From the NCBI RefSeq assembly GCF_013315695.1, contig NZ_CP054353.1: DNA of 64,000 nucleotides; one strand, 5' to 3'. This document shows positions 48,001-54,000 of this stretch, in pieces. Every line of letters begins with the position of its first letter. The first letter of the stretch is position 1. Position numbers: made by a program. This DNA is from Escherichia coli. Its GTDB lineage: Bacteria > Pseudomonadota > Gammaproteobacteria > Enterobacterales > Enterobacteriaceae.

Positions 48001-51000
48001 AACTGGCGTGCTTGGGTAAAAGAGGTGACTGATGCTCATAGATTTGGTTTTACCTTACCCGCCGACGGTGAACACTTACTGGCGACGCCGTGGCAGCACA
48101 TATTTTATCTCGGAGGAGGGAAAGCGTTATCGCCGGGCTGTGGCGCTTATTGTTCGCCAGCAGCGGCTGAAATTAAGCCTGTCCGGAAGGCTGGCGATAA
48201 AGGTGATTGCAGAGCCACCGGATAAGCGTCGTCGCGACCTGGACAATATCCTGAAAGCACCGCTGGATGCGCTGACGCATGCGGGAGTGTTAATGGACGA
48301 TGAGCAGTTTGATGAAATCAATATCGTTCGTGGTCAGCCAGTATCTGGTGGACGTCTGGGGGTGAAGATTTACCCCATAATGCATGAAGAGCAGGTCAAA
48401 AAATGAAACTGGAAGATTTACCGAAATACTACTCCCCAAAATCCCCTGGCCTGACCGATGCATCGGCCTCAACGTCAAAAGATGCGCTGAGTATCACTGA
48501 TGTGATGGCCGCGCAGGGCATGACACAGAATCGGGCTGAGATGGGTTTTTCTGCGTTCCTGGGGAAAATGGGCATCAGTATGAATGACAGGGTGCGGGCA
48601 ACAGAATTACTGGCAGATTATGCACTCAGTCGGTGCGATCGTGTGGCGGCGTTGAGAAAACTTCCGGCAGAAATAAAACCGGTAGTGATGCGCATTATGG
48701 CTTCGTACGCTTTTGAGGATTATGCCCGCAGCGCAGCGAGTAAAAAGCAGTGCCCTTGTTGCTATGGGGAAAAATTTATTGAAAGCATAGTTTTTACAAA
48801 CAAGGTCCAGTATCCGGATGGTAAGCCGCCGGTATGGGCAAAGTGTACGAAAGGTGTGTATCCGTCTTACTGGGAAGAATGGAAAAAAGTCAGGGAGGTG
48901 GTAAAAGTTGCCTGTCCGGAGTGTGGCGGAAAGGGTGAGGTTTCCACCGCCTGTAAGGATTGCCGTGGGCGTGGTGTCGCCATTCACCGTGAAGAGTCGG
49001 TAAAACGTGGTATGCCTGTTATCAGAGACTGCCAGCGTTGTGGTGGTCGTGGCTATGAAAGACTACCATCAACGGAGGCATTTAATGCTATATGCGAGGT
49101 GACAAACCAGATAACACGCGCGTCATGGGAAAAAACAGTTAAGAAATTCTATGATGCGCTGGTGACCCGGTTTGATATTGAAGAAGCATGGGCTGAGCGG
49201 CAGTTAAAAAAGGTAACTAGGTAACAAGGTTGATTTTTCCGGAATCTGTGGTAAATTCGTCATAACGATGGGCCTTTTATGCCTGACGTTAGAAGAGTTT
49301 CTACAACCCGCCGCCGAGCGGGTTTTTTATTGCGGAATTAATTACGGACCGTTATTATTCTGCTCCCGGCCCTTTAGCTCAGTGGTGAGAGCGAGCGACT
49401 CATAATCGCCAGGTCGCTGGTTCAAATCCAGCAAGGGCCACCATCACAAACCGCCATTAGCTTATCAGGAAGAGCAGACGACGCGATAACAGGGTTGTTG
49501 GTGCGGGGGCGGGTCCCCGATGGCGGTCCATTATCGGTATTCAGCGTTGTTAGCTCAGCCGGACAGAGCAATTGCCTTCTAAGCAATCGGTCACTGGTTC
49601 GAATCCAGTACAGCGCGCTATATTCATTCTTCCAGATTCCTTCCGGCAGAGCCTTATACTGAAATATACCTGGCTCAGGATATTGTTGAAAATATTATAT
49701 GTTTGTCAAAAATAAAAGTTCTGTTAAGTATTGATTGAGTGTTTGTTATACGGTCTAATGGTTTTTTCAGCATTAAATATTTATCATTCATATGGTGTGG
49801 GTAGAGTGAATATTGATGAGGCGTCGGGGTGTTTCATCCTTAGGCAGCGTATTGATATAGTCAATGCAGCACGAGCAAAGGCCTTCAGCCGTTTGACAGT
49901 TTTGTTCTGTACTCCTGATCGTCTTTCGGGAAGAGACGTTATTATTCTGAATAGTGATGCTATTCAGAGGGTTTGCGATGAGTTCATGGTTGCTAATTCA
50001 GAATTATTTGCTCTTGTTCAGGAGTACAACAGAATAGCCAGGACCTGTGGTATGGATGAACTTCGGATTACTCATCTGGGGTAGATACATATCTGGATTA
50101 TCACTTGTTACGGTAAAAAGTGATTGCTTACTGTTTTTGTGAGTGGCATTGCAGCAGCCGGATAATGTCAGTGCTGGCTGACGGTGTGCTGGTGGCGGGT
50201 GTGGTGGTTGTTGCTTTCCCGTTGCTGAAAAAGAAAACGCCAGACTGTTAGCCGGGTATCAGTTAGCGGGAGAAATTTTTAAATACTTCACAATTCAGGC
50301 GGTTGACTGTTGTCTGGTTTGCGGGGAGTTTGTTAAAAGAAACTGGCATGGTGAATCCCCCTGTGCGGAGGGGCAATCAGCGAGTAGGTATATGGGATAA
50401 TCGCGGATTCAGGTGCTGGTACTGAATTCACCGGGAGGCACCCGGCACCATGCAATGGCACATAGCGCCACTCTCCAGCCCCTCTCCGGAGGGGCTGTTT
50501 ATATTGATTTTGTCAGATGTGAGTAAACTCCTTATGGACTTTGTTGTTTTAGTCCATAAGGACATATTTGCAGAGTGCAACGGTTATTAAAGCATTCATT
50601 CAATACGTTATCTGTATTTGTAGGACATTCCTGGCTGTTTTTGATTAAATTCCAGAATGTTTTATTGAATGGTGCTACGTTGTAAATGGTTACAGGTAGC
50701 ACTTTGTTATTGAGCATGATACCTGTGTGAGTCAGTGTAAATATACTTTCAGGAGGTAAGAAAGCATCCGATTGATACCAGATTATTAATTTTATTTTAC
50801 TCCATATGACTGAAAAAGATATTCCGCATGATGGCTGGATAACTGTATCAATCACAATCCACTTCATTTAGTTTCCTTGTTTATGTCTTGCTGGTGATGT
50901 TCTGAAAAGTATAAATGATATTTTTGAATGTAAACCATAGAGCAGAATTATTTTTCTGATGTTGTTTATTGTTTATTTAAATGCAGGGTGGTTTATATCT

Positions 51001-54000
51001 CGTCTTGTAGTTTATCCATGCATATCTGCTTGATGATGAGGTTTTTATTTAAGGTATGGTTTTGTGTTTTTTCTGTATTACATGTCAGGTATTTTAAAGA
51101 ATTATTTTTCAGATGGTGGAAAGAACCATGGCATTTAAACACTATGATGTTGTCAGGGCGGCATCGCCGTCAGACCTTGCGAAACGACTGACACAAAAAC
51201 TGAAGGAGGGGTGGCAGCCATTTGGCAGTCCGGTGGCCATCACGCCTTATACCCTGATGCAGGCCATTGCGGCGGAAGGTGATGTCACCACACCTGTGGT
51301 GGTGAAGCCGTCGGATGGAGAAGGCGCAGTTATCAGCAACACCAGCAACCCGGAGTATTACTTTGTTGTTGCCCTGGCCGGGCAGTCAAACGGTATGGCG
51401 TATGGTGAAGGGCTTCCGCTGCCGGAGACATATGACCGTCCGGACCCGCGTATTAAACAGCTGGCGCGTCGCAGCACTGTCACGCCGGGTGGTGCGTCCT
51501 GTAACTACAATGACATTATTCCTGCGGACCACTGCCTGCATGATGTTCAGGATTTGAGTAAGTTTTCACACCCGAAAGCCAGCGCAGCTCAGTATGGATG
51601 CGTGGGGCAGGGATTACATATCGCGAAGAAATTGTTGCCGTTTATTCCGGCGAATGCCGGTATTCTTCTGGTTCCGTGCTGCCGTGGTGGTTCTGCATTT
51701 TTGGCGGGCGATGAAGGTACCTTCAGCGAATCCACCGGCGCAAGCGAGACCTCGGCACGCTGGGGTGTAGATAAGCCACTGTACAAGGACCTGCTTACCC
51801 GTACTCAGGCCGCACTGAAGGCCAACCCTAAAAATATTCTGCTTGCAGTGGTCTGGATGCAGGGCGAGTTTGATTTGAAACAGGGTGCATACGCCACTCA
51901 GCCGGGGCTGTTTGATTCCATGGTGGAAAAATATCGTTCTGACCTGTCGGAATTCGGAGGTCAGTGTCTCGGGGGCTCTCCGTCATCAGTTCCCTGGATT
52001 TGTGGCGACACGACCTACTACTGGAAGCAGACTTATTCTTCGCAATACGATGCGGTGTATGGTGCATATAAGACGAAATCCGCAAAAAAAATCTTCTTTG
52101 TGCCGTTTATGACGGATGAAAACGGGCGAAATGTGGGTACCAACGAGCCGTCAGAAGATCCGGATGTTGCGGATATTGGGTATTACGGAGCCGGTGGTCG
52201 AACGGACGCCAAAACCTGGACGACGGCTGACCGTAAAACGCATTTTGGATCATGGGCACGTCGTGGGATTATTTCCGACCGTCTGGCAACGGCGATTCTT
52301 GTGCATGCCGGGAGAACCGCTGAATTCATTACCGGAAAACAGCCTGATACGGTGAAGCCCACCGGACCTTCCGGTGAAGGTACGGAGAGAGAGCCGGAAG
52401 GTCCGGTCAGTAACCGAACCCTGATGAGTCTGCTGGCGTCCGGCGAAGACCTGGCATCACAGGGCTGGCGCTATTATCACAAACCGGCGAGCGGAGACAA
52501 TGTTAACAAAAACATTGCTGAAGCGGTGGTCAGTGATGCGGGGGCTACGGGAGGTAAGGCCCTGCAACTGAATAAACCGGAAAACCACATCTGGTTTCTG
52601 GAGCATGATGCAGCCGGGCAGGGGGCAGAGTTGCTGAAGAAAGGAGGACGTGTGAGCGTACGGTTTAAGTTGCCGGGTTCACTGGTGCCGAATCAGTTTG
52701 CCCTGGGCATTTACTGGCAGTTGTCGTCCCTGCCGGAGGGAGTGACGCTGGCAGAGGAAGGCAACGACATGCTGATGTCCTTCTTTCTGCAGACGGATGC
52801 GACGAACCTGAACGCGATGCACCACAAGAAGCCGAATGCGAAGCTGGAAACGTTCGGGGTCTTTGATAACGGATGGCACACACTGGCTTTTGAGTTTGCC
52901 GGAAACAACAGCATTCAGGTGACGCCGGTACTGGATGAGAAACGGGGGACGCCGTTCACACTGGTGAAATCTCCGGCATCAGGGGCGGCGGACAAACTGC
53001 AACTGACAGGCATATCAAAGGCGGCGACATATACGCTGCTGATTGACAGTGTGAAGGTGGAAGTGAACAACGCGGATGCCGCGGCATGATAAAAAAAGGC
53101 CGCCAGCAATGAAGGAAAGGGATGAACTGTGTCCACTACATGAATGCTGGCGGCTGGTAAAACGACCACGATGACACCGAAGTTTGCGATATTTTTCTAC
53201 AAAAATAAGTAAATCATGTCAACTATCACGGTGAGAAACCATGACATTTCTGAACCAGTTAATGCTGTACTTCTGTACGGCAGTCTGTGTTATGTATCTT
53301 CTTTCGGGTGGGTACAGGGCAGTGCGCGATTTCTGGCGCAGGCAGATTGATAAAAGGGCCGCTGAGAGAATCAGCGCCAGTCAGTCAGCCGGAAGCAAAC
53401 CCGAAGATCCGCTCATTCCGTAGTCACTTTCTTGACAACACCTTTCAACGAGAAAATCCCATGTCAGAAATCACATCCCTGGTCACTGCTGAGGCAGTGA
53501 AGGAAGTCCTGCGCTCTGAAGAAGTCCTGAGCGCACTGAAACAGAAACTCCGCCAGAACCTTGAGTCGCGTCTTGATGCAGAAGTGGATGCCATTCTGGA
53601 TGAGCTGCTGGGCGTACCAGCGGTTCCGGAGCCGGAAGGTATCGCGGGTGACGGGAGTGCTTCAGATGGCGGTGAACCCACACCTGACAGCGACATGATG
53701 ATGTAAGCCTGCGCAAGGGACCATCGGTGTGTGCCGGTGGTCTTTATATTGTTGTGAGCTTCCGGATAACGGGAGACGGGGTATGTACCAGATGGAAAAA
53801 ATCACAACAGGTGTGTCATACACCACGTCAGCGGTGGGAACGGGCTACTGGTTCCTGCAGTTGCTGGACAGGGTTTCCCCGTCTCAGTGGGCGGCAATAG
53901 GCGTGCTGGGGAGTCTGCTGTTTGGGCTGCTGACATATCTGACTAACCTGTATTTCAAAATCAGAGAGGACCGGCGTAAGGCGGCGCGGGGAGAGTAAAG

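Follow-up and report, generated by a model that had tools for sequence, protein, structure and literature searches.

We analysed a chromosomal segment of 64 kb from Escherichia coli (contig NZ_CP054353.1 of RefSeq assembly GCF_013315695.1; hereafter the window) and concentrated on the late region of a lambdoid prophage, in which the antiterminator gene Q is followed by phage-borne tRNA genes and by the sialate O-acetylesterase gene nanS-p. An initial annotation, made from the sequence alone, had described it as resembling the late region of Shiga toxin (Stx)-converting phages without the toxin genes. The block spans 4.8 kb and is 99.9% identical to its counterpart in the annotated RefSeq chromosome NZ_CP124442. 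The identities and order of its genes, the homology boundaries and the prevalence figures were observed directly. Features are given below with their positions in the window; the Stx2a phage Stx2_EH1910 (LC567834.1) served for comparison.

48403-49224, + strand: late-gene antiterminator Q, 273 amino acids (aa), two-repeat QuuQ/Qin type (Pfam PF03589, E = 2.2e-54)
49230-49269, + strand: putative late promoter pR', with -35 TTGATT (49230-49235) and -10 TAAATT (49252-49257), read from the sequence
49305-49331, + strand: intrinsic terminator tR', a 7-bp GC-rich stem with a T-run (terminator scan and RNA fold)
49368-49443, + strand: tRNA-Ile2 gene (CAT, ileZ-type) with encoded CCA (ARAGORN; Rfam tRNA model, 72.5 bits)
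49451-49530, + strand: degenerate relic of argN (tRNA-Arg, TCG), from alignment to the intact argN of Stx2_EH1910
49544-49618, + strand: tRNA-Arg gene (TCT, argO-type), canonical cloverleaf (ARAGORN; Rfam, 68.0 bits)
49625-50290, + strand: cargo cassette of 666 bp in the stx2AB position, unrelated to stx (pairwise alignment with Stx2_EH1910)
49806-50084, + strand: orf92, a conserved small protein of 92 aa with a predicted GTG start (PHROG 2873, full length, E = 2.8e-70)
50120-50251, + strand: DUF3927/TciB-like hydrophobic peptide, 43 aa (Pfam PF13064, E = 1.7e-27; PHROG 1470 'TciB-like'; WP_000562553.1 in the Prokaryotic Genome Annotation Pipeline, PGAP)
50317-50506, + strand: STnc100-family small RNA (sRNA) (Rfam RF02076, 132.4 bits against a gathering score of 47, E = 6.5e-30; model positions 1-206)
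50532-50867, - strand: iraM-like anti-adaptor gene, 111 aa (NCBIfam NF007393, 162.4 bits against a cut-off of 121)
51128-53089, + strand: nanS-p sialate O-acetylesterase gene, 653 aa (Pfam DUF1737, SASA and DUF6645, above gathering scores)

The toxin slot and its cassette

The absence of any stxA- or stxB-like open reading frame (ORF), claimed from the start, was borne out. Searching the whole window with Stx2A and Stx2B by tblastn (E <= 100, word size 2) returned a best E value of 0.28, outside the block and at the level of noise. Furthermore, the interval from the tRNAs to nanS-p contains ten ORFs with a length of at least 40 aa, and none of these matched the Pfam families RIP or SLT_beta, both of which were matched by the Stx2 positive controls (1.8e-29 and 2.6e-48). 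The gene pair that defines a Stx-converting phage, stxA (RIP) and stxB (SLT_beta) between the late tRNAs and nanS-p, is absent, and a stx-negative annotation of the locus can be given with confidence.

The toxin position is, however, not vacant. Stx2_EH1910 has the order argO, stx2A, stx2B, STnc100, iraM (minus strand) and nanS-p, and homology between the two sequences ends around 6 bases past argO and restarts around 30 bases before STnc100. The 1.4 kb of stx2AB stands opposite 666 bp of DNA in the window, and because the alignment places this unrelated DNA there, the toxin slot is occupied and not empty. Its edges are now set to within a few bases, argO being on the left and STnc100 on the right. 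At a coverage of at least 80% the cassette is present in 1182 of the 5426 complete E. coli genomes and stx2AB in 595, making the cassette about twice as common; it was also found in phage mEp460_ev081.

The larger of the two cassette genes, orf92, is skipped by PGAP in every genome listed, only the DUF3927 gene being annotated, so that a conserved small gene is absent from the PGAP annotation in more than 1000 complete E. coli genomes. An alternative ATG start upstream (49758) would give a protein of 108 aa. In an exhaustive search that covered 1.8 billion representative proteins, orf92 had a small family of homologues of around 92-95 aa, with 33-41% identity at the far end, and every one of them begins where the GTG at 49806 lies. 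A second clade, with 67% nucleotide identity, keeps the exact length of 92 codons with a ratio of nonsynonymous to synonymous substitution (dN/dS) of 0.29, and a distant lambdoid locus holds a homologue of orf92 (39% protein identity), a TerB-like gene and a DUF3927 gene between Q and the holins. Given the length and dN/dS of the second clade, the start shared by the homologues and the recurrence in the distant locus, orf92 is a real gene under purifying selection.

The AlphaFold2 model of the orf92 protein (predicted local distance difference test score, pLDDT, of 88.7) consists of two long helices and a joining beta-hairpin that bears the conserved motif FCTPDR.SG. A Foldseek search of the PDB found no more than generic helical hairpins (EmrA, prefoldin and designed coiled coils; best E = 0.085), and orf92 has no Pfam, NCBIfam or informative PHROG annotation. 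A literature search on tciA/tciB found nothing relevant. It is conceivable, if unlikely, that orf92 and the TciB-like peptide form a module for lysogenic conversion or exclusion that usually fills the position of the Stx toxin genes.

Transcription signals, tRNA genes and the conserved frame

The Q protein belongs to PHROG 127 ('anti-termination protein Q-like') and is labelled 'antitermination protein' by PGAP in NZ_CP124442. The gene lies directly upstream of a putative promoter and an intrinsic terminator, the layout expected of a Q-dependent late operon. Six bases past the putative -10 hexamer of pR' there is an AACGAT element (49264-49269), and this geometry resembles that of lambda pR' and its sigma-dependent pause element. 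The promoter was assigned by its position and by this resemblance to lambda. The pR' region is around 90% identical to its counterpart in the Stx2a phage. The predicted fold of the short pR'-tR' transcript was not significant (z = -0.95), and a weak match to the Trp_leader family near tR' (Rfam, 25 bits, E = 0.07) was rejected as reflecting only the terminator hairpin.

ARAGORN detected four tRNA genes in the window, two of them between Q and nanS-p; these CAT and TCT genes lie exactly where the initial annotation had put them and score far above the Rfam tRNA model threshold of 29 bits. The CAT tRNA had been called Ile2-like. It matches K-12 ileX at 68 of 76 positions, including C4-G69 and C5-G68, with a compensatory change at pair 6:67, is named tRNA-Ile by PGAP in the near-identical NZ_CP124442 locus and is identical to the ileZ-type tRNA of Stx2_EH1910. 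On the strength of the ileX match and the PGAP name, we judge the Ile2 reading to be right, the predicted canonical cloverleaf being of the ileX and not the Met type. A match to Plastid-ycf2 on the minus strand of this gene (36 bits, below threshold) was discarded as an artefact of the tRNA complement.

Encoded 3' CCA is general in E. coli tRNA genes. The tRNA-Arg(TCT) gene of the window lacks it: its 3' end (49616-49621) reads G-CTA, as in NZ_CP124442, whereas Stx2_EH1910 and two other loci have G-CCA (three alleles).

Alignment further showed that the 100-bp spacer between the two tRNA genes corresponds to the middle tRNA of the trio (CAT, TCG, TCT) in Stx2_EH1910. This relic of argN still has all 7 bp of the acceptor stem and a T stem of 5 bp, but scrambling has affected its anticodon arm and T loop, it carries four inserted bases, and it was recognized as a tRNA neither by ARAGORN nor by Rfam at E <= 1; no intact argN is present. 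What had been described as a tRNA pair is thus the ileZ-argN-argO triplet of Stx phages, its middle gene having decayed. The relic allele is not private to this strain, being at least 95% identical in around 1600 complete E. coli genomes. The variant in strain PEC199 differs mainly by a longer G-run. The relic is predicted to adopt a cloverleaf-like fold, yet with z = -1.37 against shuffled sequences and no Rfam match. A weaker possibility is that the decayed gene, instead of being neutral debris, has a role in the tRNA transcript, either in its processing or as a structural element. A literature search on ileZ, argN and argO found nothing relevant.

The right-hand edge of the slot is formed by the STnc100-family sRNA, which has its own terminator hairpin (50476-50497, terminator scan). 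In all the E. coli lambdoid loci that were examined, STnc100 comes after the slot, namely in Stx2_EH1910, where it lies behind stx2B, and in five further loci; the stx-negative phage JLK-2012 is among the loci that show this. It has been reported 75 nt downstream of stx2 (PMC12370729), and sRNAs of the STnc100 and PasD types in prophages associate with esterase genes (bioRxiv 10.64898/2026.05.13.724894). Opposite STnc100, in the equivalent RefSeq locus, PGAP annotates an incomplete coding sequence for a hypothetical protein (about 50336-50461, minus strand), which is probably a spurious call. Two related late regions each carry two copies of STnc100 flanking cargo (5395-5588 and 5864-6052 in one, 1344-1556 and 4650-4839 in the other, in the coordinates of each locus); in those two regions the paired copies could be direct repeats for gain and loss of cassettes. 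The iraM-like gene that follows is AT-rich (GC 0.30-0.35) and convergent with late transcription.

The nanS-p gene, correctly placed downstream of Q by the initial annotation, opens with an ATG at 51113, PGAP using the start at 51128 and the label 'SASA family carbohydrate esterase'. Its product has all three domains of a NanS-p protein (DUF1737, SASA and a lectin-like C-domain). The catalytic SASA domain (residues 73-391) aligns with the structure of E. coli NanS (PDB 3pt5, E = 1.4e-118) and keeps the GQSN catalytic serine motif, 'LAGQSNGMAYGEG' being aligned to 'VAGQSNAMAYGEG' of 3pt5; the lectin-like domain matches the C-terminal domain of NanS-p (PDB 6yp6, E = 5.2e-61). Homologues of NanS-p remove O-acetyl groups from Neu5,9Ac2 and so enable lysogens to use it for growth, strain EDL933 having seven active nanS-p alleles (PMC8065619). 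Prophages without stx also carry nanS-p (PMC10462455), and the DUF1737 domain of phage phi24B has been reported to bind capsid hexons (bioRxiv 10.64898/2026.04.10.717836).

The surrounding prophage

Downstream of nanS-p the late region continues with the following genes.

53241-56418, + strand: DUF1378 and DUF826 genes and the rest of the lysis cassette (Pfam, PHROGs and PGAP annotation of NZ_CP124442)
53783-53998, + strand: class II holin, lysis cassette
54000-54893, + strand: YdfR-like ORF, 297 aa, with an N-terminal DUF1327/YdfR domain (PHROG 1085, full length)
54930-55463, + strand: endolysin, lysis cassette
to 56418, + strand: Rz spanin, lysis cassette

The lysis cassette closes the accessory segment. 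PGAP calls the equivalent of the ORF at 54000-54893 an incomplete YdfR fragment.

From 28420 to its end at 64000 the window is 99.6% identical to NZ_CP124442, with the exception of 39378-40038, the sole stretch that does not align to the prophage of that chromosome. As it falls in the repressor/immunity region, a swap of the immunity module is suggested. The PGAP annotation of NZ_CP124442 gives yersiniabactin genes, an integrase and tRNA-Asn, then mtfA and tRNA-Ser. The early part of the prophage comprises an integrase, an exonuclease, dicB/ydfD, repressor/Cro, replication genes, hok, rem, DUF968, RusA and Q. After Q come the tRNA-nanS-p block, the lysis genes and genes for a terminase, portal, capsid and tail of the lambda type. 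The prophage extends past the end of the window.

The attachment junction is at the tRNA-Ser gene (33747-33836), beside the integrase. The prophage is inserted next to tRNA-Ser (serU); its heads and tails are of the phage-21/lambda type. The integrase ORF (33889-34914, minus strand, 341 aa) has a short run of direct repeats at its end (CTTGGAAT...). The neighbouring stretch (about 28420-33836) holds a yersiniabactin island (ybtQ, ybtX and ybtS), an integrase, tRNA-Asn, mtfA and tRNA-Ser, with the prophage integrase right beside the last. Adjacent tRNA genes there host a pathogenicity island and the prophage. Given the yersiniabactin island in the window, this is probably an extraintestinal strain. 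In its early region the prophage also contains the DicF sRNA (38262-38313, minus strand, 76.7 bits), which adjoins dicB/ydfD, and a hok/sok module (45834-46005, plus strand, sok 106.7 bits).

Some part of the 4.8-kb block is present in 3385 of the 5426 complete genomes, and at least 80% of it in 118. In the phage collection the alignment extends through Q in a single Stx phage record; the other Stx records start to align at 49328, in the T-run of tR' just upstream of the tRNAs. The tRNA-to-nanS-p module is common to Stx phages and this prophage, and a minority of Stx phages also share its Q. For the structural half, the best matches are non-Stx lambdoid phages and phage 21 (around 95%), the head genes being phage-21-like. 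Since the structural genes are closest to those of non-Stx lambdoids and most Stx records share only the tRNA-to-nanS-p module, the prophage is a member of the general lambdoid mosaic pool and not a specific relative of Stx phages. The earlier description as a stx-negative relative of Stx phages thus stands as regards stx, but the nearest relatives are non-Stx lambdoid siphophages with phage-21-like heads.

Interpretation and comparison with known phages

The block is very probably an accessory ('moron') segment of a common lambdoid prophage that lacks stx, placed at the head of its Q-dependent late operon. The proposed frame consists of Q, pR', tR', tRNA-Ile2, the decayed argN, tRNA-Arg(UCU), a variable cargo slot, STnc100, iraM on the opposite strand, nanS-p, holin, endolysin and Rz. 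Stx phages have the same conserved frame with stxAB in the slot, which in this prophage holds the different and more widespread cassette of orf92 and the TciB-like peptide. We infer promoter use, expression and all functions as follows. In the lysogen, transcription from pR' would halt at tR'; after induction, polymerase modified by Q would pass tR' and the downstream terminators, and this read-through would lead to expression of the tRNAs, the cassette, NanS-p and the lysis genes. The phage tRNAs would decode the rare codons ATA and AGA/AGG, and NanS-p would strip 9-O-acetyl groups from sialic acids, as is established for its homologues. With signals of their own, iraM and STnc100 may be able to act in the lysogen. 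The codons ATA, AGA and AGG occur at 7.2-7.9, 7.7-9.4 and 4.0-4.3 per 1000 in the prophage, against 4.4, 4.2 and 2.7 in the chromosomal part of the window, an enrichment of around 1.7-fold in prophage genes that is highest in orf92, iraM and Q.

Several observations weigh against this interpretation. The enrichment of rare codons is modest, and nanS-p itself is low in them. The pR' hexamers match the consensus at only 8 of 12 positions, and the promoter fell below the threshold of the promoter scan and is absent from its list, for which reason pR' is to be taken as inferred. The argO-type gene, besides lacking an encoded CCA, has a U4.G69 wobble that is not in the Stx-phage allele, and because of these two features tRNA-Arg(UCU) may be poorly matured. 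Moreover, PGAP flags the integrase of the near-identical NZ_CP124442 prophage as frameshifted; the element may therefore be unable to excise and may not be inducible as a phage.

The frame is as in the Stx2a phage, the breakpoints are sharp and lie exactly at the stx cassette, and the Q protein shows 92% identity to its counterpart driving stx2a in Stx2_EH1910, all of which would suit a former Stx-converting phage that had lost stxAB by deletion or replacement. The direction of an exchange is, however, not readable from two sequences. There is no stx remnant at the DNA or protein level, the replacing cassette is found in 1182 complete genomes, twice the number for stx2, and neither the genes for head and tail nor the nearest phage relatives are of the Stx kind. 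In addition, a set running from orf92 to DUF3927 recurs in the distant lambdoid locus (39% protein identity), for which reason the cassette appears to be old rather than a scar. With no remnant of stx and a cassette both old and common, such a loss is very unlikely. It is scarcely credible that the tRNA genes, rather than being phage cargo, are left over from a site of integration in the chromosome. Prophages do often integrate at tRNA genes, and one preprint reads tRNA matches near prophage sRNAs as integration hot spots (bioRxiv 10.64898/2026.05.13.724894), but the present tRNAs lie some 15 kb in from the prophage boundary, with Q/tR' on one side and the lysis genes on the other, and occupy the same internal position in deposited phage records, and the attachment junction is at tRNA-Ser (33747-33836), beside the integrase.

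The initial annotation had also called the region a potential recipient locus, a plausible conjecture about a future event. Put in functional terms, the slot would be a landing site into which a superinfecting or co-resident Stx phage could pass stxAB by homologous recombination at the flanks. Exact matches to the Stx2a phage measure 95 and 80 bp on the left of the slot (the two tRNAs) and 29, 25 and 53 bp on the right (STnc100 and the 5' end of nanS-p). These exceed the minimum of around 25 bp for RecA-dependent exchange. Since such long exact matches flank the slot, homologous exchange is conceivable, and differing cargos are found in one frame across phages, as module exchange would yield. 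However, the landing site is a prediction and not a sequence feature, the window records no such event and identity across the right flank is around 70-80% overall. The argument moreover fits thousands of lambdoid prophages (3385 of 5426 genomes match part of the block) and therefore does not single out this one. We regard the landing-site proposal as possible but doubtful. Extraintestinal strains could in principle gain stx by module exchange here, as is true of most E. coli lambdoid prophages.

Read as the accessory segment of a stx-negative lambdoid prophage, the block is an ordinary, already described late-region module. The segment matters little. It shares 99.9% identity with annotated RefSeq chromosomes, and the literature on Stx phages, NanS-p and prophage sRNAs describes its layout. 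The minor additions made here are the decayed argN, the missing CCA of argO, the boundaries of the slot, the unannotated orf92 and the probably spurious PGAP coding sequence opposite STnc100.

Compared with Stx2_EH1910, which has a layout of the 933W type, the window shows the same order of Q, pR'/tR', ileZ, argN, argO, slot, STnc100, iraM (minus strand), nanS-p and holin/endolysin. Alignment to the Stx2 phage gave protein identities of 92% for Q, 73% for IraM and 62% for NanS-p, with ileZ- and argO-type tRNAs that are nearly identical and STnc100 in the same place. The arrangement had been said to be exactly that of Stx phages. Homology and synteny with the Stx2a phage uphold this in outline, but not in detail: the window has the orf92 and DUF3927 cassette of 666 bp instead of stxAB, its argN is decayed, its argO has no encoded CCA, and it lacks a 1.5-kb methylase segment that the Stx phage has between tR' and the tRNAs. 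Its structural genes are phage-21/lambda-like, in contrast to those of most Stx2 phages.

The NanS-p protein of the window shares the SASA domain and the GQSN motif with the chromosomal NanS (YjhS) of E. coli and adds a phage-specific DUF1737 N-domain and a lectin-like C-domain, both absent from NanS. A DUF1737 domain also occurs in NanS-p/gp84 of phage phi24B, for which capsid binding has been reported.

Among non-Stx phages, mEp460_ev081 matches Q, the tRNAs and the cassette at 99.3% identity, but its downstream module is TolA-like, as it is in strain PEC199, in place of the nanS-p of the window; phage vB_EcoS-640R1 has a truncated DUF1737 gene downstream. The stx-negative JLK-2012 has the order Q, three tRNAs, tciA, tciB, STnc100, yjhS, S, R and Rz, with a tRNA set of Asn/Thr/Gly, unlike the Ile/Arg set of the window. 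The non-Stx nanS-p prophages of EDL933 and O104:H4, with multiple alleles, have Stx-free late regions akin to that of the window. As a group, the non-Stx lambdoids combine phage tRNAs, a small cargo (tciA/tciB or the cassette of the window), STnc100, nanS-p or another module, and the lysis genes.

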